From assembly GCA_050246315.1 (NCBI GenBank), contig JBFWWG010000002.1, forward strand, positions 204,711-268,710: a stretch of 64,000 nt of DNA, in the 5' to 3' direction. Under the pieces are notes generated by a model. The model was given only the letters and a program-made list of their open reading frames with translations, searched no databases and was not told where the DNA came from. The stretch is from Nitrospiraceae bacterium. GTDB lineage: Bacteria > Nitrospirota > Nitrospiria > Nitrospirales > Nitrospiraceae. Within the stretch, counting starts at the first letter, position 1, and each line of letters starts with the position of its first letter. The translations under genes were made by a program, and so were the position numbers. Shown here in pieces: positions 31,547-49,415 of the stretch.

Positions 31547-32731
31547 ATGGTGGATGTCTCGCCCTCCGCTTCTCTTTCCGACTCTCTCTCTGGCGCCAGA
31601 GTGCCTGTCACCTATCAAATTAGAGGAGACGAGTCTCACGCGCGACGGCAGGCCGATCTCATCTGCATCGACCAAACGGTGGAAGCAGCCGAGGAGGTCA
31701 TCCCAGCCGGACCGATACGGGATCAATTACTCGGCCGCATCGAATCGTTCGACAGAGTTGGAGAGGACCGGTGGAGCGCCACGATCAGTTTCCCGATCGA
31801 GCTGGCAAAGGCTGACGCCGTGGACCTGCTTCATCTGCTGTACGGCACGACCAGCCTCAAGAGCGGCATTCGTGTCACAAGCCTCGACCTGCCGGAACAG
31901 GGGCTCGACGGCTGGACCGGCCCGCGCTTCGGACAGGCCGGCCTCAGAACGCTCCTGGGAATCCAGCACCGCCCCCTGGTCTGTGCTGTTCTCAAGCCAC
32001 TGGGCCTGTCGACACGAGACCTCGCAGTGCTGGCCTATCAATTTGCCCTCGCAGGAATCGATCTGGTCAAGGACGATCAAGGGCTCAACGACCAGCCCTT
32101 CTGCCGTTTTGAAGATCGAGTGCAGGCTTGCGCGGAAGCAGTAACCCGTGCCAATCGTGAAACCGGACAGCACTGCCTCTACGCTCCGCACATCGGCGCG
32201 GCCCTCCCGGTAGCCAGGGATCGCGCCCTCTTTGCGAAAGCCAGCGGAGCCGGCGCCCTGCTCATCTGTCCGGGACTTACAGGGTACGAGACCTTGCGCC
32301 TGCTGGCCGCCGATCCGGAGATCACGCTGCCCCTTCTGAGTCACCCAGCTCTCCTGGGCACCTATGCCATCAACTCCGATACCGGTTTGGCCCCTGCACT
32401 CCTCTATGGCCAACTCCCACGCTTGATGGGAGCAGACATCAGCCTTTATCCGACCTACGGTGGCGACTTTGCCATGACCAGCGCGGATTGTCGGGCCATC
32501 GCGCGCGCAGCCTCGACCCCGTTCGGTGGGACCAGATCGATGTTTCCCAGTGCCGCCGGCCGGATGGGCTTCGGACAGATTCCGGAGATCGCGACATTGT
32601 ATGGACCGGACGTGGTGTACATTCTCGGAAGCCGCATTCAGAAACATCCGGACGGCCTTGTGAACGGCTGCCGTCAGTTCATTCAGGCGATCAGCCGACC
32701 CTCGTCCTCAGACCGACCGTCCTGGTCATGA
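31547..32731 (+). CDS. RuBisCO-like protein (form IV)
   Basis: GPRFG, LKPLGLS, DLVKDDQGL, ANRETG, HPAL, MGAD, PTYGG; lacks the KDDE signature of true RuBisCO. Confidence 0.85.
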   Translation: MVDVSPSASLSDSLSGARVPVTYQIRGDESHARRQADLICIDQTVEAAEEVIPAGPIRDQLLGRIESFDRVGEDRWSATISFPIELAKADAVDLLHLLYGTTSLKSGIRVTSLDLPEQGLDGWTGPRFGQAGLRTLLGIQHRPLVCAVLKPLGLSTRDLAVLAYQFALAGIDLVKDDQGLNDQPFCRFEDRVQACAEAVTRANRETGQHCLYAPHIGAALPVARDRALFAKASGAGALLICPGLTGYETLRLLAADPEITLPLLSHPALLGTYAINSDTGLAPALLYGQLPRLMGADISLYPTYGGDFAMTSADCRAIARAASTPFGGTRSMFPSAAGRMGFGQIPEIATLYGPDVVYILGSRIQKHPDGLVNGCRQFIQAISRPSSSDRPSWS

Positions 32732-34992
32732 CTCTCATGGCACCTTCCGCCATCACGCCCGAGTGCCGCCGCACTGTTCCGGCCCAGCGGGCAGGACGGC
32801 CGCGAGTCCTGCTGATTATTCCTCCTCTGACCCAGCTCAATACGCCATATCCCTCCACTGCGTATCTGACAGGATTCCTGCGGTCACGCGGCTATGAGGC
32901 GTTTCAAGCCGACCTTGGTATCGAGATGGTTCTCTCCCTGTTTTCAAGGAAGGGACTGCAGGAGGTCTTCGAGACCATCAGGCGGCAGTCGAGTGACCTC
33001 CCGGGCGAGGCCAGACAAATGCTGGCGCTCGAACAGGCCTACGTCAACTCGATCGATGAAGTCGTCGCCTTTCTCCAGGGTAAGGACCCCTCTCTTGCCA
33101 CGCGCATTAGTCAGGGCCGATTTCTCCCGCAGGGACCCAGGTTCGCTCGGCTTGCGGATTCGGACGAACAATCAGCCGCACTGTCAACCCTGGATCGAGC
33201 CAAATATTTGGCGACTCTCTACCTCGAGGATCTTGCCGACCTGATTCATGAAACCGTCGCCACGCAGTTTGCACTGAGCCGATACGCCGAGCATGTCGGA
33301 ACCTCGGCTTCATCCTTCGATCAAGTTTTCCAGTCCCTCTCCGCCGCTCCATCCTTGACCGATCGCCTGATGCTTCAGGCCCTGGCTCAACATATGACAT
33401 CAGTTCGTCCCACGCTGGTCGGATTGACGGTACCTTTTCCGGGCAACCTCTACGGGGCCTTTCGCATCGCCCAATGGCTCAAATCCAACCATCCGACCAT
33501 CACCGTTGCGCTGGGCGGCGGCTATGCCAACACGGAACTCCGCCGTCTTCAAGACCCGAGGGTCTTCGACTATGTGGACTTTGTGACGCTGGACGATGGA
33601 GAAAAGCCGCTGTTGTATCTCCTGGAACACCTATGCGACCGGCGGGCGGTATCGTCGCTCTGCCGAACCTATTATCGGACGCAGAGCCACGTGGTGTTTG
33701 CGTTCAACCATTCTGAGCCGGATTTGTCCATCCAGGAGGTCGGCCCGCCAACCTACGACGGACTTCCGCTCGATCGCTACTTGTCGATCCTCGACACGAC
33801 AAACCCTATGCATCGCCTCTGGTCCGATGGTCATTGGAACAAGTTGACCGTCGCCCACGGGTGCTACTGGAAGCGTTGTACGTTCTGCGATGTCGGGTTG
33901 GATTACATCGGCCGTTATGAAGCGACGGCCACCGATGTCTTGCTCGGACGCATCGAGCGGTTGATCCAGGAAACGGGCCGCCGCGGATTCCATTTTGTGG
34001 ACGAAGCCGCGCCACCAGTCTCGCTCAAGTCGCTTGCGCTCAGATTGCTCGAGAAAGGCCTGACCATCTCATGGTGGGGGAACATCCGATTTGAGGAAGC
34101 CTTCACGCCGGACCTCTGCCGGTTGCTGGCGGCTTCGGGCTGCATCGCCGTCAGCGCCGGTCTTGAGGTGGCCTCCGATCGCCTGCTGGCGAAAATGGAC
34201 AAGGGCATTACCGTGGATCAAACGGTTCGGGTGGCAGCGGCCTTTCGGCAGGCCGGCGTCCTCATCCATGCGTATCTCATGTATGGATTCCCAAGCGAGA
34301 CGATCCAGGAAACGATCGACAGCCTGGAACGGGTCCGACAACTCTTCGCCGCAGATCTGATTCAATCCGCGTTCTGGCACAGATTCGTCGCCACCGCTCA
34401 CAGCCCGATCGGCCTCGATCCGGCAAGCCATGGCATCACGATTCTCGGACCGTTACATAAAGGGTTTGCGGAGAACGATCTGGTCTATGAAGATCGCTCG
34501 ACCTTGGTACCCGATTGGCTCGGGCTCGGCCTTCGCACCGCACTCTCCGCTTACATGGAACGGCAAGGATTAGCAAGACCGGTGCATCGCTGGTTCACCC
34601 ACCGCGCACCTGCGACGACCGTCTCAGGCGATTGGATCGCCTGCGCGTTGCGCGCGTCTTCGAAAACCGGCCGTTCCCTCGCCAATCGCAACCGTCGCCT
34701 GATCTGGATCGGTGGACAGCCGGTCATCGAGCGGAGCGACACACAGACTTGCATCGTCATCCTTCCGAACGTCACAGAGGATCGTCGCCTCCGTCTGAAC
34801 AGACCTCAGACGGATTGGCTGCGGGACTTGCTCGGAAGTGCGACTCCCCGGAGCCAGCAACCATCGGCGGCATACCGGAAACTGGCGGAGGTGCGAGAGA
34901 CCTATCCGTTCGGTGGCCCCGCGGCGTTCGACTCCTGGTCACGGAAACGCGCCTGGCAAACGATCAGACAGGCTGGCTTGCTGTTGATCTGA
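32728..34992 (+). CDS. B12-binding domain radical SAM protein
   Basis: PPLTQLNTPYPSTAYL, LGGGYAN, GCYWKRCTFC, FVDEAAPP; ATGA overlap with the RLP gene. Confidence 0.85.
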   Translation: MTLMAPSAITPECRRTVPAQRAGRPRVLLIIPPLTQLNTPYPSTAYLTGFLRSRGYEAFQADLGIEMVLSLFSRKGLQEVFETIRRQSSDLPGEARQMLALEQAYVNSIDEVVAFLQGKDPSLATRISQGRFLPQGPRFARLADSDEQSAALSTLDRAKYLATLYLEDLADLIHETVATQFALSRYAEHVGTSASSFDQVFQSLSAAPSLTDRLMLQALAQHMTSVRPTLVGLTVPFPGNLYGAFRIAQWLKSNHPTITVALGGGYANTELRRLQDPRVFDYVDFVTLDDGEKPLLYLLEHLCDRRAVSSLCRTYYRTQSHVVFAFNHSEPDLSIQEVGPPTYDGLPLDRYLSILDTTNPMHRLWSDGHWNKLTVAHGCYWKRCTFCDVGLDYIGRYEATATDVLLGRIERLIQETGRRGFHFVDEAAPPVSLKSLALRLLEKGLTISWWGNIRFEEAFTPDLCRLLAASGCIAVSAGLEVASDRLLAKMDKGITVDQTVRVAAAFRQAGVLIHAYLMYGFPSETIQETIDSLERVRQLFAADLIQSAFWHRFVATAHSPIGLDPASHGITILGPLHKGFAENDLVYEDRSTLVPDWLGLGLRTALSAYMERQGLARPVHRWFTHRAPATTVSGDWIACALRASSKTGRSLANRNRRLIWIGGQPVIERSDTQTCIVILPNVTEDRRLRLNRPQTDWLRDLLGSATPRSQQPSAAYRKLAEVRETYPFGGPAAFDSWSRKRAWQTIRQAGLLLI

Positions 34993-35084
34993 TCCGGTCG
35001 AACCGAGCGCATCCACACAATCGGAAAGGCGATGGACGCCCCGAATCAAGTGGTCGGACTTTTCCCCATTCCTGCCGGAAAAGC

Positions 35085-35110
35085 GAAGAGCCGCCCTGAG
35101 GCGGCTCTTC
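35085..35110. terminator. Hairpin terminator
   Basis: GAAGAGCCGCC-ctga-GGCGGCTCTTC between convergent genes. Confidence 0.7.
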
Positions 35111-35135
35111 TGCATTCCGACAGGCTATCCGGCCC

Positions 35136-35771
35136 CTACTTGTTGGGCTGTGGCGTGTACCGGAGATAGGGCTTGACGGCCTTAAACCCTTTGGGGAAGA
35201 GCTGCTTGGCTTCCTCGTCGTTGACCGCCGGCGTGATGATGCAGTCCTGCCCTTCCCTCCAGTTCACCGGCGTAGCCACCTTGAAGTTTGAGGTCAATTG
35301 CAGCGAATCGATCACCCGCAACAGCTCGTCGAAGTTTCTCCCGCAGGAGGCTGGGTAGGTCAGGGTGAGCTTGATCTTCTTATCCGGTCCGATCACAAAC
35401 ACAGACCGGACGGTCATGTTGTCGAGCGCGTTGGGATGAATCATGTCATAGAGCGTCGCAACCTTCTTCTCCGGGTCCGCGATCAGAGGATAGTTCACGG
35501 TGCAGTTTTGCGTTTCATTAATGTCGTTGATCCACCCCTTGTGGGCATCGAGCGGATCGACGCTCACCGCGAGCACCTTGACGTTGCGCTTCTTGAAATC
35601 GTTCGCGATCTTCGCCATGTAGCCCAGCTCCGTGGTGCACACGGGTGTAAAGTCCTTGGGGTGTGAAAAGAGAATGCCCCAACCGTTGCCCAGCCACTCG
35701 TGAAAGTTGATCTTGCCCTCGGTCGTGTCGGCCATAAAATTCGGCGCTTCATCGCCTAGTCGCAATGGCAT
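35136..35771 (-). CDS. 1-Cys peroxiredoxin (Prx6 type)
   Basis: FSHPKDFTPVCTTE, GRNFDELLRVIDSLQL, ATPVNW. Confidence 0.92.
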   Translation of the reverse strand: MPLRLGDEAPNFMADTTEGKINFHEWLGNGWGILFSHPKDFTPVCTTELGYMAKIANDFKKRNVKVLAVSVDPLDAHKGWINDINETQNCTVNYPLIADPEKKVATLYDMIHPNALDNMTVRSVFVIGPDKKIKLTLTYPASCGRNFDELLRVIDSLQLTSNFKVATPVNWREGQDCIITPAVNDEEAKQLFPKGFKAVKPYLRYTPQPNK

Positions 35772-35984
35772 GGGATGCCTCCTTTTTCTAGAAGATTTAT
35801 AAGGACGTAAGGCAGCGGCTCGGAAGGATGCTTGTCCGGCGAACCTTATCGTGTGCCTACGTTACAGCGGCAGCCACGCCATGTTCAAGAGCACCATGGA
35901 AGCCCTTCGACCATACGGAGGATGCGAGCAAGGCCCCGGATTGCTATAATGGGAAACGCGTGATTACCTACCAAGCGAGATACG

Positions 35985-37682
35985 ATGAAACTGCTGTTCA
36001 GATTGTTGATCCTGTGGCTCATGCTGTTCGAGGTGGAACGGTCCGGCCCATTTGCACAAACCGTCATGGACAGCGCCTCGGAGGGTTCCTCACAGACCCC
36101 TTCGACCGATGCCCCCGCTCCTCCTCCCGATGCTCAGGGTGCCGCACCCGAAGGCAGCCACAGTTCCGGCTCAGAGCCTAACCAAACCCCTGATACCAAC
36201 TCTTCCGGCCCTCAGGAGCTTGCGAGCCCCGGCTCCAGAGCGGCAGGCGAGCCGCAACCTCGTCCGGATTTGCCCTCGGAACTGACCTTGCCGACCCCGC
36301 AGGTGCAGGAGAGCCCCCTTCCCTCTCCGCACACCCCGGCTCCCAGCCCCATTGTGCCACATCCGGAAGCGCCTCCGGTTCCGCTGGAAGCGGAACCCAT
36401 GAATGAAAAGCCGCCGGCGCAATCATCTGCGACTCCGTCTCAGGCCGAAGAAGAAGCGGCGCCTCCGGAGTCAATGCAGCCGTCGCCTCTGGTGACGACG
36501 ACGGAGGCCAATCCCCTGGATGAGGCCAGGGTTCTGCTCCTCAAGGGTGAGTACCTGGACGCCGCAACCCGGTTCCGACAAACGGTTCGCGACTACCCTG
36601 ATCTGATCGAGGCGCGGCTCGCACTGGGGGAGGCCCTCGCGGCACTGGGCGACATGGACGGGGCCCTTGAGGAATACCGACGCGTCATTCAGCGCGATCC
36701 ACAGGCCACCGCCGGCCATCTAAAAGTCGCCGGGCTCTTGATGGCCAAACGCCATTGGAAGGAGGCGCAGGCCGCCTTGAATATCGCCGTCGCCCAACAG
36801 CCGACTCACCCTCAGGCTCACTATGCGATGGGTGTGATTCGATACAGCGTCGGCGACACAGGCGGGGCCATTGAAGCCTTTCGCCGTGTTATCGAACTCA
36901 AACCGGATTCTGCTGACGCCCATTATCAGCTCGGATTGTTGCTGAAATTGACCAAGCAGAAAAGAGAGGCCGCCGTCGAATTCGCCACGGCGGCCGCTGC
37001 AGGCCATCCCCGCGCCCAATATTTTATCGGCGCCGCCTATGCTTCCGGCAGCGGCATCGACAAGCAGATGGCCACGGCGGTGCAATGGTGGATGGCGGCG
37101 GAGGATCACGGTGTGCAAGAAGCCCATGATGCGCTGGCGCGCCTACGGCGGGCCGTTTATAAATGGCCGGACACGCCAGAAGGCATCAAGGCTGCCCAGG
37201 CTTTTGCCGCCTACCGCGACGCGCTCTGGAAAGAGTTCCCCTCGATTACCCGCAGCGACAGGGAAGACAGTCTCGGCGGACATCTGTTGGCGCTCAATCA
37301 CATCGGCGAAGCGATCCCGGTGCTGATTCGGGAAGCGAGCGCCATGGATACTTTGGCCGGATCGCAATTAGCCCTCATCTACGAACGAGGTGCGGACCCG
37401 ATTGTCGCTCCCTTTGACACCCGCATCTTGCGCTACTTCCAATCTGCCGCTTCCGAAGGCGTACCTCAGGCGAAGTTGACGCTGGCGCGTATCCGCGCCC
37501 TCGGCCTCGGCGTTCCCGCCGACAAGCAGAGCGCTCTGAACCTGCTCAAGGGCCTTCACGGAATTAAGGCGGAGCAGCTCCTGGCCGATTGGGCCGCTGC
37601 CGCAAACGGTGCGATACCTCCGCCGACCGGACAGGCACAACAGTCCGGCACGGCACCAGGTTCCAACAACAATACCAACTGA
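35985..37682 (+). CDS. Exported TPR/SEL1-repeat protein with Pro/Ser/Glu-rich linker
   Basis: Signal peptide, long low-complexity region, TPRs (AHYAMG, AHYQLG), SEL1-like AQYFIGAAYASGSG; extended -10 TGCTATAAT at 35942-35950. Confidence 0.8.
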   Translation: MKLLFRLLILWLMLFEVERSGPFAQTVMDSASEGSSQTPSTDAPAPPPDAQGAAPEGSHSSGSEPNQTPDTNSSGPQELASPGSRAAGEPQPRPDLPSELTLPTPQVQESPLPSPHTPAPSPIVPHPEAPPVPLEAEPMNEKPPAQSSATPSQAEEEAAPPESMQPSPLVTTTEANPLDEARVLLLKGEYLDAATRFRQTVRDYPDLIEARLALGEALAALGDMDGALEEYRRVIQRDPQATAGHLKVAGLLMAKRHWKEAQAALNIAVAQQPTHPQAHYAMGVIRYSVGDTGGAIEAFRRVIELKPDSADAHYQLGLLLKLTKQKREAAVEFATAAAAGHPRAQYFIGAAYASGSGIDKQMATAVQWWMAAEDHGVQEAHDALARLRRAVYKWPDTPEGIKAAQAFAAYRDALWKEFPSITRSDREDSLGGHLLALNHIGEAIPVLIREASAMDTLAGSQLALIYERGADPIVAPFDTRILRYFQSAASEGVPQAKLTLARIRALGLGVPADKQSALNLLKGLHGIKAEQLLADWAAAANGAIPPPTGQAQQSGTAPGSNNNTN

Positions 37683-37693
37683 GTTCATCATCG

Positions 37694-40534
37694 ATGAGCC
37701 TCGGCCAGATCGCCGTAGACGTGATGGCGCGCCGGTCCTTTCCGTCGCGCCTGATCCAGGCGACGGCAATCGGCGGGTTGTCGGCCATTTTGGCGGCAGG
37801 AATCTTCGCCGGGGCCGGACCTGTCACGACCCTGCTCGATCGCGCACTGTATGACTGGTGGGCGATGAGACAAGCGACACCCTCTGTCGAAACGGTCATC
37901 ATCATCGGCGGCGGGAACGAATCCCGACTAGTCGAGCCGGGTTTGCGGCGAGAACAAGTCGCGCGCGTGATCGATGCGCTACATCAAGCCGGCGTGCGGG
38001 CTATCGGCCTGCTCGACCCGCTGATCACACCCGGCGCTCCGGAACAGGGCGGAGCCGCCGGCGATACGCTGCTGGCCGAAGCGATCGCACAGAGCGGCAG
38101 AGTGGTGATCCCGCTAGCCTTGATCCCGCAGGAGGGCCTTCGGCCAGGATCAACGGCGGACCGAGAGAACGGTATCACTCCGGTGCACCGGCAGTGGCTC
38201 CCGGTGGTCGATCCCAACTATGGAGGAGCGCCCGAGACCGTCCTCCTGGCCCCGCCGCTCGGGTCGCTCCTGGAAGCGGCAGCCAACGCGGGCCATCAGA
38301 TCCTCACTCCGGACCGGGACGGAGTCATCCGGCACACACCGCTCTTCGTTCGGCTAAACGATCGTTTCGTTCCGGCTTTCGGCTTGGCGCTTTGGCTGAC
38401 CGCCTCCGATCTCTCCAGCTCTCACCTCACCTTCCGGTCCGGTTCTTCGCTGAAGATTCGCAGGTCCGGCTCGACCGAACAGGATCTGGTTCTGCCACTC
38501 GACGGAATGGAGCGACTGATGCTCCCCGCGTTGCAAGCCCCCTTGCCTCCCTCGGCAACGGTCATCCCGACAGAAGAGCTGCTGCGCTTGGTTGAGGCGA
38601 ACGACTTCGATCTCCTCCGCACCAGATTCGCTCACACCATCGTTCTGCTCGAAACTAGAGAGCGGGAGAAGGCAGTCTGGCGCATGACCAGACCTCCCCT
38701 GACTGACTATCATCTTCTGACATCGTTGATGACCGGTCGCTGGGCCACGCCCTGCGCCCCATCAGTCACTGTCGCCGTTTCCTTGTTGCTTCCCGCAATG
38801 GGCGCCTGGCTCTTCCTCACCTTGCACGCCGGGAGAGCGATCGCTCTGGCTAGTGTGATCATGCTGGCCTATTTGGGGCTGGCCTTTGGTTTGCTGTCCT
38901 TCTCTCACCTCGTCCTTCCGGTATTCGTTCCTCTCTGTGCTCTCTTGGTCACAACCGGCTGTGCCCTGATGTGGAAACAGACTGCCGCCGGAGTACAGAT
39001 CCGGCTCCTGGAACAGGATGTTCAGCGTGTCCAGGCACACCTTACCGCGGTACGCGAAGCCGTGGCTTCCCAGGAATCCCTGGTCGAGCGGCTGACCGAA
39101 GACCTCGAAGCGGCAAGAACCGGCATGCTGGAATCGGCCACGAAAGCCCGTTCGCTCGAATCGTCCGCCCGGTCGATGCAGCAGGCGCTTGAGGAGGCTG
39201 CGGCAAAGGAGTTGGAAGCGCGCCGCCGCCTGAGCGAACTGGAGACGGATCTCGCCGGCCTGAGGGCCGCCTCTGTCACGGACGAGCCGATGCCACAAGC
39301 CGAGTGGGAGGACCTCCGCGAGGCATGCCGGCAGTTCAATATTCTGTCACGGAACCCGGCGGTGTTGAAGAGTTTCAGAGAGGTCAAGAAGGCCGCACGT
39401 ACTCCGATTCCCATTTTGATTCTCGGAGAATCCGGCACCGGCAAAGAACTCTTTGCCCGCGCCGTCCATCTGCTCAGTCCTCGATCCGCCCAGCCGTTCA
39501 TCGCCGTCAACATGGCGGCGATCTCACCGGAGCTGTTTGAAAGCGAATTATTCGGTCATGTTCGCGGAAGCTTCAGCGGAGCGACCCAAGACCGTCCGGG
39601 CTATTTCGAGTTGGCGGACCGGGGCACGCTCTTCCTCGACGAAATCGGCGATCTCCGGCCCGACCACCAGAGCAAACTTCTGCGGGCGCTGCAAGAACGG
39701 ACATTTTATCGCGTGGGAGCCACCAAACCCTCCACCGTGGATGTCCGCATTATCGCCGCCACCAATCGGGACCTGATCCAAGGAGTCACGGACGGTTGGT
39801 TCCGTTCCGACCTCTATGCCAGGCTCCGTGGTTTGCCTGTGACCCTGCCGCCATTGCGTGACCGGCGCGAGGACATTCCGCTCCTCGCAGACCATTTCCT
39901 GAAGGCGGCGGGGACCGCCATGTCCCGGTCTCCGCTCAGCTTCACGGAAGACGCCCTGAAGACGTTGGAGGAATATGCCTGGCCGCACAACGTGCGTGAG
40001 TTGCAACAATGCATCGAACAGGCGGCCGCCCTGACAGACGGGGATCTCATCGGAGTCGAAGACCTCCGACTCACACGACCCTTTCCGCCACGATCCCCTC
40101 GCACCGGTGGAGCAGGGTCCTCGCCCCCGGATGTGGCAGGAGACAGGGCGGTACTGGAATGCCTCCGCACTCACCGATTCGACATGCAAGCCACCGCAAG
40201 CGCTTTGGGTTGGGATCGGAGTACCGTCACGCAGCGATTGAAGGGACTCTGCTTCCAGGCTCTTGTCGATCACGGGCACGACAAGGTCCTGGCGGCGACC
40301 GCCCTAGCCCAGGACCCCGGCCTGATCCGAACGGTTGAATTGAAACTCATCGAGTACACCGATCACCTGTTCCAGGTTGCCCGAACCTATCCCTCCGCGA
40401 CGGACGCGATCGAGGCCTGTCGGAGACGATTCAAGAATCTGTCCGATCGTCACTTCAAGGCGGTGGAAGTACTGATCCAACGAGAGTTTGAAATGCTCGG
40501 TCGAAGCAACCGACTTCCCTCTCAAATCCAATAG
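37694..40534 (+). CDS. Membrane-anchored CHASE2 / sigma54-dependent transcriptional activator
   Basis: CHASE2 motifs (DRALYD, PDRDGVIRH), 3 TM helices, coiled coil, GESGTGKELFA, ELFGHVRGSFSGA, LFLDEIGD, WPHNVREL, HTH; start uncertain. Confidence 0.88.
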   Translation: MSLGQIAVDVMARRSFPSRLIQATAIGGLSAILAAGIFAGAGPVTTLLDRALYDWWAMRQATPSVETVIIIGGGNESRLVEPGLRREQVARVIDALHQAGVRAIGLLDPLITPGAPEQGGAAGDTLLAEAIAQSGRVVIPLALIPQEGLRPGSTADRENGITPVHRQWLPVVDPNYGGAPETVLLAPPLGSLLEAAANAGHQILTPDRDGVIRHTPLFVRLNDRFVPAFGLALWLTASDLSSSHLTFRSGSSLKIRRSGSTEQDLVLPLDGMERLMLPALQAPLPPSATVIPTEELLRLVEANDFDLLRTRFAHTIVLLETREREKAVWRMTRPPLTDYHLLTSLMTGRWATPCAPSVTVAVSLLLPAMGAWLFLTLHAGRAIALASVIMLAYLGLAFGLLSFSHLVLPVFVPLCALLVTTGCALMWKQTAAGVQIRLLEQDVQRVQAHLTAVREAVASQESLVERLTEDLEAARTGMLESATKARSLESSARSMQQALEEAAAKELEARRRLSELETDLAGLRAASVTDEPMPQAEWEDLREACRQFNILSRNPAVLKSFREVKKAARTPIPILILGESGTGKELFARAVHLLSPRSAQPFIAVNMAAISPELFESELFGHVRGSFSGATQDRPGYFELADRGTLFLDEIGDLRPDHQSKLLRALQERTFYRVGATKPSTVDVRIIAATNRDLIQGVTDGWFRSDLYARLRGLPVTLPPLRDRREDIPLLADHFLKAAGTAMSRSPLSFTEDALKTLEEYAWPHNVRELQQCIEQAAALTDGDLIGVEDLRLTRPFPPRSPRTGGAGSSPPDVAGDRAVLECLRTHRFDMQATASALGWDRSTVTQRLKGLCFQALVDHGHDKVLAATALAQDPGLIRTVELKLIEYTDHLFQVARTYPSATDAIEACRRRFKNLSDRHFKAVEVLIQREFEMLGRSNRLPSQIQ

Positions 40535-40660
40535 ACTCCATGCGGGGCTATCCCCGCATCCCCTCAACAGCCTCTGAATTCCCGCAAGGTATCCATCAGA
40601 AACGTTCTCGTATCCTGCTGTTTTTGCGTGAGTATTTGACTCGCTCTCGGTTTGGCTCTT

Positions 40661-40676
40661 CGGCACCCCAGTTGCT
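40661..40676 (+). promoter_or_regulatory. Sigma54 (-24/-12) promoter of the OmpA-sortase operon
   Basis: CGGCAC-CCCAG-TTGCT, GG-N10-GC. Confidence 0.8.
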
Positions 40677-40895
40677 CATCCTAGGCTCGAACGATGGCTT
40701 GATGGAATGAACGGCCGGAATGAAAGGAGGTGACGGAAAGCGCTGTTCCATCGGAGCCACGAAAGAAGGAGCGATAACAGATCACACCCGCACCACCTTC
40801 TCTCAGGGAGTACGGGTTGCTCTCCCGTCGTACTGGGCTCTGGGGGAGCGAGAGACAACGCTAGGAGATCTTTCAGGAAGAAAGGAGTTCCATCC

Positions 40896-41747
40896 ATGAA
40901 CAAAGGTGCCGAACACATAGTCTATGCCGCCAATCCGACAGCCGGCAGCGCCGCCCAGGGAGAACAGACGGATCGCGGCGTGAACGAAGTCATGATCGTG
41001 GGAGGGAGCGTGCTGGTGCTGGCCATTGGGATAGGGATCGCCTGGATGGTGGCTTCGCAATCGGAGCAGACGACGCGGGCAACGTCCGTCTCCTTCCCAT
41101 CATCGCCCATCGTGATGCCGGAGGTTTCGACCTCCGCGGGTCGCACGGGCGAGATCGCCGGCCAACCGGTACAACAACCTTCTGTCTCGACGGCTGCCCT
41201 CCCGACCCAACTCAAAGAGTCGCACCACGCCGATATTTCGTTTGATTTCGGGAAAACGCGACTCACCAATGAGGCCAAGGTCTATCTCGACGAGCATGCG
41301 GCCTTTATGACCAGAAACCAGGACTATGGGCTCCTCATCCAAGGTTACACCGATGGCCGCGGTTCGTCGCTCTATAACAGAGCCCTCGGTCTCAAGCGGG
41401 CTGAATCCGTCAAGGCTTACCTGATCAGCCTCGGGGTGCCGGAGCACCGGATCAAGACCGCAAGCCTCGGCGAAGATGGAGTCCTCTGTCTTGACGACAG
41501 TTTGGACTGCCTCATGCTCAACCGCCGCGCCCATCTGGAGTTCATTAAGGTCGGGTCCACACATTTGATGCCGCCTGTGGAGTCGGTCCCAGCGGACAGC
41601 ACAACCGTCCCGTCGGAGCCTGTCACGGCTGAACCGATCGTAGAACCGGTTCAGGATTCGACCGATACTTCCATCCCCCTTCAGCCTGTCGAATCACAGG
41701 AGCCTGAAAATCAGCTCGTGCCGGACGAGCCAGGCGTCACGCCTTAA
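40896..41747 (+). CDS. OmpA/Pal-family peptidoglycan-binding protein (PdsO-like)
   Basis: FDFGK, GYTDGRGSSLYNRALGLKRAESVKAYL, SLGE, NRRA; N-terminal TM. Confidence 0.85.
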   Translation: MNKGAEHIVYAANPTAGSAAQGEQTDRGVNEVMIVGGSVLVLAIGIGIAWMVASQSEQTTRATSVSFPSSPIVMPEVSTSAGRTGEIAGQPVQQPSVSTAALPTQLKESHHADISFDFGKTRLTNEAKVYLDEHAAFMTRNQDYGLLIQGYTDGRGSSLYNRALGLKRAESVKAYLISLGVPEHRIKTASLGEDGVLCLDDSLDCLMLNRRAHLEFIKVGSTHLMPPVESVPADSTTVPSEPVTAEPIVEPVQDSTDTSIPLQPVESQEPENQLVPDEPGVTP

Positions 41748-41829
41748 CGAACTTGCTGCGCCGGAGGCCGGCATGGTCCGACCTCCGGCTCCTCCAAGAG
41801 CCTTAAACGATTCGCCCCCAGGAGCTCCC

Positions 41830-43956
41830 ATGCGAATTCTTGCAATCGACAGGCATCGTGTCCGGCTGATTCCCCTCTTGATCCCACTCATGATGGCCCC
41901 GGCTCTGATCTCGTCGCTATCCACTCTGCAGGAGATCGCGTCCGCCGCGGACGACGGACAGGGAATGTCATTGAAGGAGGTCACCAGCGGGTCGCTTTTG
42001 TTGAAAGGCCAACCCGGCTTGCTGATCCCGGCGCCGACTCTCCATACCGACGTGACCATCTCTGTAAGCGGCCTCATCTCCCGCGCCAGGGTGAGCCAAC
42101 AGTTTTCCAATCCAGGCGAGACTTGGCTGGAGGGCATCTATGCCTTTCCCTTGCCGGAGAGAGCCGCCGTGGACCATCTCAGGATGAAGATCGGCGAACG
42201 GATCATCGAGGGCCAGGTCAAGGAACGGAGCGAGGCGAAGCAAACATACGAACGGGCCAAATCAGATGGCAAACGCACGGGTCTCGTTGAGCAGGAACGA
42301 CCCAACCTGTTCACAACCTCGGTCGCTAATATCGGGCCTCATGAAACGGTTCAAATAGAAATCGAGTATCAGGAGACGATCAGGTCGGATCATGGGAAAT
42401 TTCATCTTCGCTTTCCGATGGTCATCGGCCCTCGTTACATCCCGGGGCGTCCTCTCGACAGCGTGACCTCATCAGAACCACCTTCTTCGTCGAACCACAG
42501 TGCTCAAGGCCATGGTTGGGCGCCGGACACGGATCAAGTACCGGACGCCTCCAGAATTACCCCTCCCGTGCTGCATCCCTCTCAAGGCCCCATCAATCCG
42601 GTCAGCCTCTCAATCGATCTGATGCCGGGATTCCCGATCTCCCATGTGGATGCGCCCTACCATGCTGTTCAGGCCGTATCCGAGACCGCCACGCATTGGC
42701 GCATCGCGCTCCGGGACGGCGCGGTGCCTGCGGATCGCGACTTCGAATTGATGTGGCGGCCGTTGCCCGGCTCCATGCCGACCGCGTCCCTGTTCACCGA
42801 ATCACGCGAGGAATCGCACTATGGCTTGCTGATGATCACGCCGCCGGCGATCGAACATGACTCGTCGATCGGAGGTCCGCGTGAGGTCATCTTCGTCATC
42901 GACACGTCCGGCTCGATGTACGGACTGTCTCTCGATCAAGCCAAGGACGCGCTGCGCCTGGCGCTCTCCCGGCTGCGCCCGGAGGATCGCTTCAACATCA
43001 TTCAATTCAACAGCGTGACGCACCGGTTGTTTGCCGCTCCGCAGCCGGGCGTCCAGGCGCAACTCGATCAGGCGATTGGCTACGTCAACGGACTTCAAGC
43101 CACCGGGGGCACGGAAATGCTTCCAGCCCTCACCCTCGCCCTTGACGGCTCACCCCAGCCCGGTCGGCTGCGGCAGGTCATCTTTCTGACAGACGGACAG
43201 ATCGGAAATGAAACGGAATTGTTCACCACGATCCAGGAACGCCTGGGCGATAGGCGTCTGTTCACCGTCGGCATCGGGTCGGCGCCCAACAGTTATTTCA
43301 TGCGGCGGGCGGCAGAGATCGGGCGCGGCGCCTTCACCTATATCGGAAGGATCGACGAGGTGCGGGACCGCATGACCGATTTGTTCCAAAAATTGGAACA
43401 CCCGGTACTGACCGACCTCGCAATCACAGACGAGGGCTGGAGGCAGATGGACCTCCTGCCGGCACAGATTCCCGACCTCTACATGGGAGAACCGATTCTG
43501 CTCGCACTCAAGGCACCGTCGTTTCCTAATCACGTCACACTCAAGGGACGGATCGGCGCTCGGCCGTGGCAAGCCGAGTTCTCGTTGATCGATCGCCAGG
43601 ATCGGGAAGGCATTGCGGTCCATTGGGCCAGAGAGACAATCCACGCCCTCACGGAGCGCCTCGTCCACAGTACCGATCACGCCTCGCTCCGAAATCAGAT
43701 CGTCGAGGTCGCGTTACAGCATCACCTGGTCAGTCGATTCACAAGCCTGGTGGCGATCGACGTCACACCGGTCAGGCCGGTCATGGAGGCGGTGCACACA
43801 AAGCCGCTTCCGACCAACCTACCTCACGGTCAGGACTATGAACACATCTTTGGCTTGCCGCAGACTGCTACCTCCGCATCCCTCCATCTCATGATCGGCG
43901 GACTGGCGCTGTTGTTAGCGATGCTCTTCGTGACGCGTTTCAGGTCTTCCACATGA
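41830..43956 (+). CDS. Sortase target protein (VIT + vWA, LPQTA sorting signal)
   Basis: YAFPLPERAAV and VEQERPNLFTTSVANI (VIT), DTSGSM (MIDAS), C-terminal LPQTA + TM + basic tail. Confidence 0.9.
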   Translation: MRILAIDRHRVRLIPLLIPLMMAPALISSLSTLQEIASAADDGQGMSLKEVTSGSLLLKGQPGLLIPAPTLHTDVTISVSGLISRARVSQQFSNPGETWLEGIYAFPLPERAAVDHLRMKIGERIIEGQVKERSEAKQTYERAKSDGKRTGLVEQERPNLFTTSVANIGPHETVQIEIEYQETIRSDHGKFHLRFPMVIGPRYIPGRPLDSVTSSEPPSSSNHSAQGHGWAPDTDQVPDASRITPPVLHPSQGPINPVSLSIDLMPGFPISHVDAPYHAVQAVSETATHWRIALRDGAVPADRDFELMWRPLPGSMPTASLFTESREESHYGLLMITPPAIEHDSSIGGPREVIFVIDTSGSMYGLSLDQAKDALRLALSRLRPEDRFNIIQFNSVTHRLFAAPQPGVQAQLDQAIGYVNGLQATGGTEMLPALTLALDGSPQPGRLRQVIFLTDGQIGNETELFTTIQERLGDRRLFTVGIGSAPNSYFMRRAAEIGRGAFTYIGRIDEVRDRMTDLFQKLEHPVLTDLAITDEGWRQMDLLPAQIPDLYMGEPILLALKAPSFPNHVTLKGRIGARPWQAEFSLIDRQDREGIAVHWARETIHALTERLVHSTDHASLRNQIVEVALQHHLVSRFTSLVAIDVTPVRPVMEAVHTKPLPTNLPHGQDYEHIFGLPQTATSASLHLMIGGLALLLAMLFVTRFRSST

Positions 43957-44540
43957 TGGGCACATTCCACCGGCTATCAGGCTGCTTGGCCATCGGCATC
44001 ATGGGTTGTTTCGGGATGTGGGAATTGGCGCAAGGAGGGTGGATCCACTTGAAGGCGTCATTGGCGCAACACTTACTGCAACAAGCATGGGCGCAGACGA
44101 TTGCGCGACAAACCCCAATCAAACCCTGGCCCTGGGCAGACACCTTTCCTATCGCCAGACTCTTGGTATCGCGTCACCAGATCGATGAGATCGTGCTGGC
44201 CGGCGCCAACGGACGGACGTTGGCGTTCGGACCAGCTCACCATGAAGACAGCGCGAAGCCTGGCATGATGGGCGTCAGCATCATCACCGGTCATCGGGAC
44301 ACCCATTTCCGGTTTCTTCACCGGTTGGAGCCGGGTGACCGGATCGATGTGCAGACCGTACATGGCGCCTTGGTCAGCTACCGGGTCCTGGGCAGCAGCG
44401 TGGTGGACGGCCGGCTGCCGTTACAGGTTTCGGGAGGGGACGAAAACGTTCTGCTCCTGGTGACTTGCTATCCCTTCGATGCCTTGGTGTCGGGCGGGCC
44501 GTTCCGGTATGTCGTGATGGCAGAGATGAGTGATCGGTGA
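43953..44540 (+). CDS. Class GN (proteobacterial-type) sortase
   Basis: KPWPWADT, LAFGP, GHRDTHF, LVTCYPFDA, GGPFRY. Confidence 0.9.
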   Translation: MMGTFHRLSGCLAIGIMGCFGMWELAQGGWIHLKASLAQHLLQQAWAQTIARQTPIKPWPWADTFPIARLLVSRHQIDEIVLAGANGRTLAFGPAHHEDSAKPGMMGVSIITGHRDTHFRFLHRLEPGDRIDVQTVHGALVSYRVLGSSVVDGRLPLQVSGGDENVLLLVTCYPFDALVSGGPFRYVVMAEMSDR

Positions 44541-44555
44541 CCCAGCATAGAGTCG

Positions 44556-44633
44556 AGGGGACTGGCTCCGCGGTCTGGATCGCTAGGGGACTGACACCCT
44601 TCACCGCGTCTGCGCGTGGTGTCTGTCCCGCTT
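44556..44633. repeat. GGGGACTG-type palindromic element
   Basis: Two GGGGGACTG starts; GGGACTGACACC...GGTGTCTGTCCC stem downstream of the sortase. Confidence 0.4.
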
Positions 44634-44706
44634 CTGAACCAACCGTAATTGCAGCAGCGCGACTCAAGTTTGTGGCCGGGTATCCGAAAAAGAAACGGGA
44701 ATACCC

Positions 44707-45069
44707 ATGGCCGTCACGAAGCCCCATGCCTCACGCCTGCGGATCTCCAATGATCCGATGTATCAGCTCTTACGCGACGGGGCGATCACCGAGTTCAACG
44801 CCAAAAAGGCCGCGGGCCAGACGGTAAGCCTGCGCAACTGTGACCTCCGGGGCCTTGACCTGCGTGGATTGGACGCGGACGGCTTAGATTTCAGCGACAG
44901 TTATTTCAGGCAGGCCGACCTGCGCGGCGTGGATTTCCGCCGCGCGAACCTCGAAGGGGCCAGCCTCAACAATGCCCAGATCTCAGGCGCCTACTTCCCC
45001 CTGGAACTCTCCCCTGAAGAAATCACCCTGTCCCTCACCCACGGCACTCGCATGCGGTACCGGAAATAG
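44707..45069 (+). CDS. Pentapeptide repeat protein
   Basis: CDLRG LDLRG...ADLRG VDFRR ANLEG ASLNN AQISG. Confidence 0.9.
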   Translation: MAVTKPHASRLRISNDPMYQLLRDGAITEFNAKKAAGQTVSLRNCDLRGLDLRGLDADGLDFSDSYFRQADLRGVDFRRANLEGASLNNAQISGAYFPLELSPEEITLSLTHGTRMRYRK

Positions 45070-45316
45070 CCTCGGCACGCGCTGTTCCAACTCCTGCACG
45101 CAAAGAAGGCCTTGGCGCAGTCCGAAGCGTCATATCCGGCGTCGGAGCGGTGCCCCCATGCACCAAGAGCTTATTCACCCTGGGCGAGGTCAGCCACCCT
45201 GTCCTTGCCTACGGCATTCCACTCGCTATATTCTGTCATCCGCAGTATGGAGCATCTCACCTGCGGGTTGATCATTCCGAGCCTCGAGCCACCCAGCTCG
45301 AAGAGGAGTATCCGCC

Positions 45317-48272: not shown

Positions 48273-49415
48273 ATGGACGCCGCCACACTGCAGCGAAGCC
48301 TGGCCAACCGCACGATGCTGATCGTCGATGATGAGGAACCGATTCGAAAGCTGCTGTCCGCTCTGCTGGAACGGCACGGCTATAGCTGCATCACCGCAGC
48401 AGACTCACGAGATGCCCGAGCCAAGCTCAGCGAACAGGAGGTGGCCATCGTCCTGTGCGACGTCAATATGCCCGGCGAGTCTGGAATGGACCTGGTGCGG
48501 CACATTCTCCATAATGACGCCACCATCGCCGCCATCATGGTGACTGGCCTCGACAGTCCCGTCCTGGCCAATGCCGCGCTGGACATGGGGGCCTTCGGCT
48601 ATATCATCAAGCCGTTCGAAACCAACGAAGTCTTGATTAGCGTCTCCAATGCGCTCCGCCGCCGCAGGCTCGAAATCGAAAACCGCGCGCATTGCGAAAA
48701 CCTCGAACAAATGGTGCGGACCCGAACCGTGGCGCTCCAGCAGGCGTTGGAATGGCTGGAGCGGAGCGAGAAGGAACTGCGTTTCTCGCGAGAAGAAACC
48801 ATCCAACGACTGGCCATCGCCGCCGAGTTCCGAGACCACTCAACTGCCAAGCACATCCAACGCATGAGCCGCTATTGTGAATTGCTGGCGCGTCGATTCG
48901 GTGTACCGGACGAACAGTGCGACCTCATCCGCACGGCCAGCCCGATGCACGATATCGGTAAGATCGGCATCCCCGACCATATTCTCCTGAAGCCGGGCAA
49001 ATTCACCCCGGAGGAATTCAGTATCATCGCGCAACATGCGGAGATTGGCTACCGCATCCTCAGCGGTTCCGATGCGGAACTTTTAAAGGTCGCGGCCGTT
49101 ATTGCTTGGACCCATCATGAGCGGTTCGACGGCACGGGATATCCCCGGAAATTGCAAGGCACGGACATTCCCCTAGAAGGCCGCATCACCGCCATTGCGG
49201 ACTCGTTCGATGCGCTCACGACCCAGCGTGTCTACAAGCCGGCTTATGCCGTCAGCCACGTCGTGGATCTCATGCGACAGCAACGCGGCGCCCATTTTGA
49301 CCCGGGGCTGCTGGACGTCTTTCTTGATTCAATGGAGGACGTCCTCCGGATTCAGAAGGAATATCCGGACGCGCTCGGAGCGGCTGCGGTGACGTTCAAT
49401 GAGTCGCCCATTTGA
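48273..49415 (+). CDS. Response regulator with HD-GYP c-di-GMP phosphodiesterase domain
   Basis: IVDDE, CDVNMP, KPF receiver; HDIGKIG, HHERFDGTGYP. Confidence 0.92.
   Translation: MDAATLQRSLANRTMLIVDDEEPIRKLLSALLERHGYSCITAADSRDARAKLSEQEVAIVLCDVNMPGESGMDLVRHILHNDATIAAIMVTGLDSPVLANAALDMGAFGYIIKPFETNEVLISVSNALRRRRLEIENRAHCENLEQMVRTRTVALQQALEWLERSEKELRFSREETIQRLAIAAEFRDHSTAKHIQRMSRYCELLARRFGVPDEQCDLIRTASPMHDIGKIGIPDHILLKPGKFTPEEFSIIAQHAEIGYRILSGSDAELLKVAAVIAWTHHERFDGTGYPRKLQGTDIPLEGRITAIADSFDALTTQRVYKPAYAVSHVVDLMRQQRGAHFDPGLLDVFLDSMEDVLRIQKEYPDALGAAAVTFNESPI

Follow-up and report, generated by a model that had tools for sequence, protein, structure and literature searches.

The stretch of DNA analyzed in this work, a 64-kb window (by "window" we mean this whole stretch, to which all the coordinates given below refer) belonging to a Nitrospiraceae genome of 4.39 Mb in 30 contigs, harbors five genes, all on the forward strand, coding for an exported TPR/Sel1-repeat protein, a one-component membrane activator of sigma-54-dependent transcription, an OmpA-like protein, a VIT-vWA sortase target, and a class GN sortase (Table 1). 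This set of co-directional genes had been claimed in a preliminary description of the locus, and both the coordinates of the open reading frames (ORFs) and their Pfam/NCBIfam matches confirmed it. The TPR and the activator genes are separated by 11 nt and the OmpA-like and the target genes by 25 nt, the target and the sortase genes overlap by 4 nt, and the 361 nt lying between the activator and the OmpA-like gene embed a palindrome and a sigma-54-type promoter element. The whole body of data points to a self-contained envelope-signalling module, in which an activator joining CHASE2 and AAA+ domains, partnered by the TPR/Sel1 protein, drives the OmpA-like/target/sortase operon via sigma-54; we assign to this reading a probability of about 0.65.

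Table 1. Features of the sortase-associated locus (window coordinates).
Feature	Length	Position	Strand	Basis
Exported TPR/Sel1-repeat protein	565 aa	35985..37682	+	Pfam TPR families, weak Sel1
One-component membrane sigma-54 activator	946 aa	37694..40534	+	CHASE2, Sigma54_activat, AAA_lid_14, weak HTH_8
Enhancer-like palindrome		40540..40559	none	Conserved across loci
Sigma-54-type -24/-12 promoter element		40661..40676	+	Conserved across loci
Shine-Dalgarno-like leader motif		40722..40733	+	Conserved in Nitrospiraceae leaders
Inner-membrane-anchored (predicted) OmpA-like peptidoglycan-binding protein	283 aa	40896..41747	+	OmpA domain, one transmembrane span
VIT-vWA sortase target	727 aa	41773..43956	+	TIGR03788, LPQTA tail
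Class GN sortase	195 aa	43953..44540	+	TIGR03784, catalytic motifs

The activator matches CHASE2 (PF05226) with 64.5 bits (cut-off 26.3) and Sigma54_activat with 213 bits, contains AAA_lid_14, and revealed no receiver domain in the Pfam/NCBIfam scan. Along the chain, a first transmembrane span is followed by the periplasmic CHASE2 domain, a hydrophobic block, a coiled coil, the AAA+ domain, its lid, a helix-turn-helix (HTH), and a conserved C-terminal tail. Hydropathy places one span near residues 20-44 and a hydrophobic block of about 70 residues at approximately 358-427; according to our reading of the topology, which is a prediction, this block is long enough for three spans returning the chain to the cytoplasm. 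The domain scan, in which only the HTH is weak, is thus in agreement with the one-component architecture (CHASE2, AAA+, and HTH, with no receiver) proposed in the preliminary description. CHASE2 was matched in all 20 relatives, none of which revealed a LysM insert in this domain, and the AAA+ motifs are intact, with the Walker A sequence GESGTGKE and the sequence FLDEIGD being invariant among the orthologs. The segment DRSTVTQRLKGL of the HTH is invariant or nearly invariant in 25 orthologs, which fits the invariant DNA site described below. The loop of the GAFTGA type reads GSFSGA in the window protein, most members of the family having GSFTGA instead; among the Desulfovibrio enhancer-binding proteins to which Table 1 of PMC4641369 assigns regulons, both GSFTGA and GAFSGA loops are represented.

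An identical 946-aa protein is on record (P0003; 100% identity, 100% coverage), and the closest named relative is a Nitrospira tepida protein sharing 75% identity. The sensor half is rare, since it retrieved 71 cluster representatives at E <= 1e-10 among 1.84 billion. The reading frame is open from a TTG at 37589, upstream of the assigned start at 37694. The activator represents the sole CHASE2 match in the genome, which also possesses rpoN (426 bits). Behind the HTH, a segment of about 85 residues (~860-946; window ~40270-40534) carries the invariant residues CxRRFKNLxxRHF and has no Pfam match of its own; weak HTH_30 (PucR-type) matches were observed in the C-terminal region of 13 of the 20 relatives. 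A paralogous clade of CHASE2-sigma54 activators (L111-L117), 25-28% identical in the sensor half, occupies seven of the Nitrospiraceae loci fetched, with no TPR or OmpA-like neighbors; in L111 a Trypsin_2 peptidase gene and several proteins without a family match lie just upstream of it. The window genome, having one CHASE2 match only, lacks this paralog.

The TPR/Sel1 protein begins with a hydrophobic leader, followed by a proline-rich linker to about residue 175 and by TPR and Sel1-like repeats at approximately 178-545. All the 25 rows of the alignment of its orthologs (A2) share the hydrophobic N-terminus, the linker being variable and the repeat region conserved. The preliminary description had suggested that this protein might be a partner of CHASE2, an idea that is supported by the prediction of a complex between CHASE2 residues 40-380 and the repeat region 176-545, each entered with its own 25-row alignment. 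Three runs gave scores of 0.74, 0.74, and 0.70, while the best of three controls stayed at 0.00; the runs had at least 91% of their contacts in common, and the predicted local distance difference test (pLDDT) value of the partner was 86. A score at this mark was attained by 116 of 157 solved complexes and by 2 of 215 mismatched pairs, a calibration that holds only roughly for our own alignments. No solved structure resembling the CHASE2 part by sequence was found (best E 0.3), and the recall of a solved complex is therefore unlikely. The predicted interface includes the invariant GGAAxD segment of CHASE2 (residues 119-124) and, on the activator side, is more conserved than the rest (0.42 vs. 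0.29; 136 of 10,000 random sets were as high). Hence, the modeled complex supports the binding of the TPR/Sel1 protein to CHASE2 in the periplasm. Some orthologs in A2 (e.g., L100, L106, L118, and L003) carry in their leader a Cys after a lipobox-like L-x-[GAS], which is missing in the window protein; judging from these sequences, some genera may have a lipoprotein as the TPR partner and other genera a soluble protein.

Concerning the output genes, the OmpA-like protein consists of a short cytoplasmic N-terminus, one span at residues 32-50 (from hydropathy), which is predicted to provide a MotB-like inner-membrane anchor, an OmpA domain (64.4 bits, residues 116-214), and a Pro/Glu-rich tail. 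It is not a PdsO, since it matches TIGR03789 with 56.9 bits (cut-off 152.2) and only at model positions 137-241 of 243, that is, over the OmpA domain; its function may nevertheless resemble that of PdsO, as a wall-binding protein encoded by the first gene of the operon. The target belongs to TIGR03788 (VIT plus vWA; 775 bits, cut-off 551.65), and its C-terminus, GLPQTATSASLHLMIGGLALLLAMLFVTRFRSST, comprises the LPQTA motif, a transmembrane span at 702-720, and the basic tail RFRSST, a GLPxT[AG] signal being present in 18 of 19 orthologs. The sortase, single-copy in the genome, matches TIGR03784 with 202.2 bits (cut-off 158.25) over model positions 4-174 of 174. The catalytic residues of sortases are a His, a Cys (in a TLxTC-like motif), and an Arg; the window protein has the motifs GHRD, LVTCYP, and RYVV, and its orthologs share L[VIL]TC[YF]P and R[YW][VIL]V in 19 of 19 cases and GHR in 18. 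In L083 (G024:C1, ~3045-5092), from the same genus, the target is in two pieces lying in different frames (query residues 28-169 and 171-709), which suggests a frameshift or a sequencing error. In the Methylomirabilota locus L144 (G167:C7, ~4590-4923) a full-length target is followed by a 36-residue fragment of the sortase and then by a second, short target-like fragment, so that this looks like a decaying sortase end of the operon.

The promoter element reads CGGCACCCCAGTTGCT and would place the start of transcription near 40688, leaving a 5' untranslated region of about 209 nt. It had been presented as a canonical sigma-54 promoter; its position and its GG-N10-GC spacing stand, while "canonical" is slightly generous for a site beginning with CGGCAC and not with TGGCAC. 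The element is not significant when taken alone, because sites of this kind are no rarer than chance in the window (the 16-mer -24/-12 consensus with two mismatches allowed gave 27 matches vs. 28.3 expected), and its weight comes from conservation. Indeed, a GG-N10-GC site with TTGC lies upstream of the OmpA-like gene in all the 31 Nitrospiraceae loci compared, window included, scoring from 8 to 11 of 12 consensus positions (at least 10 in 22 loci, 9 in 6, 8 in 3). The background for sites scoring at least 10 is 0.028 per 530 nt (1.46 Mb scanned), and the strict pattern NGGCAY-N5-TTGCT occurs just 31 times on both strands of these 1.46 Mb.

Anchoring the upstream sequences on the promoter site revealed the palindrome ATGCGGGG-CTAT-CCCCGCAT, located 6 nt behind the stop codon of the activator gene. 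Its core, GCGGGG-N4-CCCCGC, starts 119 nt upstream of the window promoter element and 119-123 nt upstream in most Nitrospiraceae loci, and downstream of it a half-site, CCCCGCA, recurs across loci (TCCCGCA at 40580-40586 in the window). In 48 loci from two phyla, the palindrome was exact in 36 and had one mismatch in 8, whereas the pattern did not find it in 4 (one N-masked, two with a longer spacer, and one with a half-site only); the background is 0.018 per 180 nt. The genome contains four copies of the core, of which only the one behind the activator gene has a sigma54-like site nearby, so that the regulon seems to consist of a single operon. Palindrome and promoter are separated by a conserved patch richer in A/T; between an upstream enhancer and a sigma-54 promoter a site for IHF would be expected.

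The distribution of the module was studied in a family sample of 151 Nitrospiraceae genomes. TIGR03784 was matched in 58 of them (in 54 above the cut-off), and the first 520 residues of the activator in 125, the paralogous family included. In 48 of the 58 sortase-positive genomes the contig carrying the sortase also has an activator hit, on the same strand and 5 to ~23 kb upstream; the other ten are fragmented assemblies, where the hits fall on different short contigs or are not listed. By tblastn with the window proteins, we mapped 41 loci, i.e., 20 sortase-positive ones, 20 with the activator elsewhere or without sortase, plus L003; this choice was biased, and therefore the proportions with and without sortase mean nothing. 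The TPR-linked activator occurs in 34 of these loci and the paralogous one in the other seven. In 33 of the 34, the TPR gene is found directly in front of the activator, the exception ending at a contig end, and the order TPR-activator-OmpA-like is found in 30, two of the other four lying at a contig end and two having no OmpA-like gene within ~9 kb. Thus, two of the three features that had been named beforehand as those on which the proposed circuit could fall, i.e., the synteny of the activator and TPR genes with the sortase and the conservation of the promoter motif, were found to hold.

All the 20 loci chosen for their sortase exhibit the OmpA-like, target, and sortase genes in that order, and the 14 other TPR-linked loci have neither target nor sortase, ten of them keeping TPR-activator-OmpA. 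Since the trio persists without target and sortase, the regulator pair appears to be tied to the OmpA-like gene and not to the sortase. The conserved unit is therefore made up of the TPR/Sel1 gene, the activator, the enhancer with the promoter, and the OmpA-like gene, which is the invariable first gene behind the promoter, target and sortase being an optional downstream pair. The idea of an activator controlling the sortase operon remains valid at its core, with this shift of emphasis. Several genera have the activator and the OmpA-like gene set apart by 2-9 kb of unrelated genes, the majority of which lie on the opposite strand; where the locus is split in this way, palindrome and promoter are found next to the OmpA-like gene, and the TPR gene remains next to the activator. 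The inserted genes (Na/H exchanger, GT87, methyltransferases, AbiU2, AsmA-like) were considered as parts of the system and rejected, being heterogeneous and mostly on the other strand.

As for the two-component pair PdsS/PdsR, the best matches in the genome scored 106.8 bits (TIGR03785, cut-off 612.2) and 131 bits (TIGR03787, cut-off 335.7), and PdsR was above its cut-off in none of the 151 Nitrospiraceae genomes; nor was any DNA-binding two-component pair found near the locus. The suggestion that a single activator has replaced the pair agrees with these results as far as the lack of PdsS and PdsR matches above the cut-offs is concerned; the replacement itself, an evolutionary claim implying an order of events in time, is putative.

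Outside Nitrospiraceae, the sensor half of the activator gave matches at E <= 1e-10 in 43 of 201 Methylomirabilota genomes (search from G151). The TPR-activator pair is present in all the 18 loci fetched, followed by the OmpA-like gene in 17 (one ends with its contig) and by the target in 6, five of which possess a full sortase. A TGGCNCG-N4-TTGC-type promoter site was found in 17 of 17 loci, scoring 9-11 of 12, with repeated GCGGGG/CCCCGC elements 70-135 nt upstream of it. A quick maximum-likelihood phylogeny was built from 60 activators (all rows longer than 700 aa kept) and rooted at the midpoint only. In it, the paralogs split off with a Shimodaira-Hasegawa-like approximate likelihood ratio test (SH-aLRT) value of 100, and the TPR-linked family forms one group (100). 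The Methylomirabilota sequences also form one group (100), nested among the Nitrospiraceae rows and placed beside the group of the window (89). This nesting is a hint of transfer between phyla, so that the module might have moved between them as a cassette. Moreover, at least 12 changes are needed to explain the sortase label on this tree, and therefore the target-sortase pair has been lost or gained many times.

Downstream of the promoter, the leader motif GAAAGGAGGTGA (itself or a near variant) was found in 30 of the 31 Nitrospiraceae leaders. It matches the anti-Shine-Dalgarno complement GRAAGGAGGTGA and lies 31-50 nt after the -12 element, with 75-160 nt separating it from the real start codon. 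The leaders revealed neither a conserved start codon behind the motif nor a consensus fold, and no Rfam family matched 35700-45300 at E <= 1. The STAB-SD element of Bacillus is a ribosome-binding stabilizer of leaders; by analogy, the motif may have the same role here. In Methylomirabilota, a similar motif, AAGGAGGAA, directly follows the promoter, where it may be the true ribosome site. A 59-aa ORF at 40720-40899, the stop of which overlaps the start of the OmpA-like gene, was rejected as a gene, since it is conserved only in a 95%-identical relative.

Assembled RNA contigs holding parts of 39500-42500 exist for 20 runs from seven studies, and four runs were compared over 35700-45300. In X1, a 997-nt contig covers 40705-41680, its left end abutting adapter letters, and a contig of X2, a run belonging to another study, starts at 40703; these two left ends, which lie 15-17 nt downstream of the predicted start, are a weak hint in favor of the promoter. 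In X12, coming from a relative (95-99% alike), a single contig at 40821-44289 spans the OmpA-like and target genes and enters the sortase gene. Gaps in the coverage occur in X1, X2, and X12 and carry no weight here.

With regard to the flanks, a B12-binding radical SAM gene (+) and a divergent 1-Cys-type peroxiredoxin gene (-) occupy 32488-35771, and they have the same position in two genera. A 120-aa pentapeptide-repeat protein is encoded after the sortase (44707-45069), with 74-99% identity, far above that of the module proteins; in L103 this gene stands directly behind the OmpA-like gene, target and sortase being missing there. It is overlapped by a 96-aa ORF (44537-44827) without a family match. 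Downstream of the module are rdgB and rph (-), a receiver-HD_5 protein, and metH. The response regulator at 48273-49415, 4 kb downstream, has an HD_5 output and no DNA-binding domain, and it was therefore rejected as a candidate regulator.

It is useful to compare the module with known systems. The activator resembles the enhancer-binding proteins of the NtrC/DctD/PspF type in its Sigma54_activat AAA+ domain, GAFTGA-type loop, AAA lid, and Fis-type HTH, as well as in a site located ~100-130 nt upstream. It differs from them in having no receiver, GAF, PAS, or V4R input and in bearing an N-terminal CHASE2 domain between membrane spans, which should make it an integral membrane protein. As to its partner, ExoR of Sinorhizobium and relatives is an exported Sel1-repeat protein acting on the periplasmic domain of a sensor (ExoS/ChvI). 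In both cases an exported Sel1-repeat protein would set an envelope-related program via a membrane sensor; the likeness is a functional analogy only, the binding being predicted here, and the ExoR sensor is a histidine kinase and not a CHASE2-AAA+ fusion. The window protein is not itself an ExoR, as its NF045484 match (E 0.00076) has 18.8 bits against a cut-off of 450.

The output genes find their counterpart in Shewanella oneidensis, where, according to the accessible part of bioRxiv 10.1101/2023.05.05.539549, the genes pdsO-SO2195-SO2196 are induced more than 17-fold by ampicillin or by the loss of PBP1a and adjoin a divergent two-component system, SO2192/SO2193 (PghK/PghR, i.e., PdsS/PdsR), a sensor of peptidoglycan damage. 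The sections of a 2026 paper that we could access (PMC13712847) report that the induction is PghR-dependent, that the target SO2195 contributes to the tolerance of beta-lactams and D-cycloserine, and that Nitrospiria are among the lineages with a sortase gene behind the target gene; its text, as accessible, does not mention regulators of the Nitrospiria homologs, although its Figure 7B may show neighboring genes. The two loci share the output order (OmpA-like, TIGR03788 VIT-vWA target, class GN sortase) and a dedicated adjoining regulator. The Shewanella regulator is a divergent histidine kinase plus an OmpR-type response regulator, whereas in our window a single CHASE2-AAA+ membrane protein, preceded by a TPR/Sel1 gene, is combined with a -24/-12 promoter and an upstream palindrome. 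In addition, and unlike in Shewanella, the OmpA-like protein falls outside the PdsO model and target and sortase are dispensable for the module. The peptidoglycan-damage signal has been demonstrated only in Shewanella.

A further parallel is offered by the PEP-CTERM/exosortase system, whose regulators PrsK/PrsR (the latter a sigma-54 activator) are encoded together with the TPR lipoprotein PrsT, as described in the available portion of PMC1569441. It too is a protein-sorting system of diderms associated with a sigma-54 activator and a TPR protein, but exosortase is unrelated to sortase, and in that system the role of activator belongs to a response regulator, which has a separate kinase. The window proteins scored below threshold with TIGR02915 (271 bits, cut-off 503) and TIGR02917 (62 bits, cut-off 312) and are not members of these families. 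In the portions of the literature available to us, PMC4641369 and PMC3162934 included, we found no published description of a CHASE2-sigma54 activator or of a regulator of the Nitrospira sortase locus.

On the basis of these data, the following working scheme can be envisaged. The first two genes would supply the exported TPR/Sel1 protein and the inner-membrane activator, whose periplasmic CHASE2 domain would be connected by three further spans and the coiled coil to the AAA+ part, with the DNA-binding domain at the C-terminus; given the lack of a receiver domain, no kinase would be needed. The TPR/Sel1 protein would bind CHASE2 in the periplasm and set or gate its state. The DNA-binding end of the activator would recognize GCGGGG-N4-CCCCGC just behind its own gene, and the AAA+ ring, ~120 nt upstream, would remodel the closed complex of RNA polymerase and sigma-54 at the promoter, giving one transcript. 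This, in turn, would encode the OmpA-like wall-binding protein, the VIT-vWA LPQTA protein, and the class GN sortase expected to process it. The gene content and order, the conserved promoter and palindrome, and the predicted TPR-CHASE2 interface come from computation; we infer, instead, that this activator and no other uses the palindrome, as well as the direction of the effect of the TPR protein (inhibitor or co-receptor). The cue might be wall or envelope damage, a guess suggested by Shewanella PghKR.

Different explanations might account for the same arrangement. It might be supposed that the activator drives the operon via sigma-54 as proposed, and that the TPR/Sel1 protein takes no part in sensing but serves the products (the OmpA-like or the VIT-vWA protein) as a periplasmic scaffold or chaperone, its link to the regulator being one of co-expression only. 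TPR/Sel1 repeats are generic scaffolds, the matches of this protein are all below the family cut-offs and its matches to solved structures are generic, and the TPR side of the predicted interface is no more conserved than the rest (0.49 vs. 0.44; 2094 of 10,000 random sets were as high). However, in split loci the TPR gene accompanies the activator, at 5-40 nt from its start in most loci, and does not go with the output genes; it also persists in loci lacking target and sortase, and the complex prediction passes against all three controls. All of this makes the explanation unlikely in our opinion. The palindrome and promoter might also be used by another regulator, or the palindrome might be a repressor site, with the CHASE2 activator acting elsewhere. 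The genome holds 28 strong Sigma54_activat matches, hence 27 other candidates, and the assignment of the site to this particular activator consequently depends on linkage and on the co-conservation of HTH and site, as read from the sequences. Nevertheless, site and activator co-occur in 48 of 48 loci from two phyla, both the HTH and the site are nearly invariant, and the pairing of palindrome and sigma54-like site at this locus alone gives no sign of a regulon elsewhere; we consider this possibility very unlikely.

Lastly, the -24/-12 match might not be a working promoter, in which case the operon would depend on read-through of the TPR-activator transcript or on an unrecognized sigma-70 promoter. 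The five genes are co-directional, the terminator scan gave nothing convincing inside the operon, and the promoter site alone is as frequent as chance would have it: the 64-kb window contains a single GGCAC-N5-TTGC vs. 0.67 expected, and 51 of 100 shuffles contain it at least once. If this were correct, though, it would be difficult to explain why, in the many genera where 2-9 kb of opposite-strand genes intervene, site and palindrome are kept at a fixed spacing; moreover, no sigma-70-like match was found between 40534 and 40896, and in two studies RNA contigs have their left ends shortly after the site (weak evidence). Of the explanations considered, we hold this one to be the least likely.

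Besides the abundance of sigma-54 activators, the chance frequency of the promoter site, and the ordinary conservation of the TPR side of the interface, other points weigh against the scheme proposed here. The HTH_8 match of the activator is below the Pfam cut-off (20.6 vs. 22 bits), 18 of 20 relatives matching at E <= 0.01, and its GSFSGA loop is two changes away from GAFTGA. The window promoter has a C at the first consensus position, where a T is expected, and in three genera the -24 half is degraded to TGGTCT or TGGCCT. The RNA contigs cannot show start, strand, or level, and in X8 one contig covers the whole stretch, so that DNA may be present in such libraries. The calibration of the complex score is rough, as mentioned above, the related loci are kin and not independent samples, and the cue is pure analogy. 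More generally, the start site, the binding, and the rpoN dependence of the circuit are predicted. Even so, the circuit put forward in the preliminary description is supported, within this framework, by every computational test available.

What is new here is the regulatory wiring, the sortase output system itself being already known. Broadening the perspective, it is conceivable, and in our opinion somewhat short of an even chance, that these proteins represent a family of integral-membrane sigma-54 activators reading the periplasm directly, in which CHASE2 is gated by a Sel1/TPR co-receptor and the tethered AAA+ ring works on an enhancer beside its own gene. They would belong to an uncharacterized envelope-stress pathway of nitrite oxidizers and Methylomirabilota controlling wall-tethering proteins, moved between phyla as a cassette into which the sortase pair was repeatedly plugged or from which it was lost. 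The first physiological role of a Gram-negative sortase system was described only recently, the Shewanella target protecting the envelope under cell-wall-acting antibiotics (PMC13712847, as far as accessible). The presence of the same output operon with a wholly different input in two other phyla suggests that this output answers a general envelope need.

If the proposed scheme were true, the CHASE2 domain would gain a defined protein ligand. Since the constant output is the OmpA-like gene and not the sortase, experiments should be directed at the OmpA-like protein. The system is compact, with one sensor-activator, one partner, and one promoter with a defined DNA site, and it makes testable the workings of a membrane-bound sigma-54 activator, the ligand of the poorly understood CHASE2 domain, and the inducer of the sortase operon in Nitrospira-type nitrifiers, organisms that matter in wastewater treatment.

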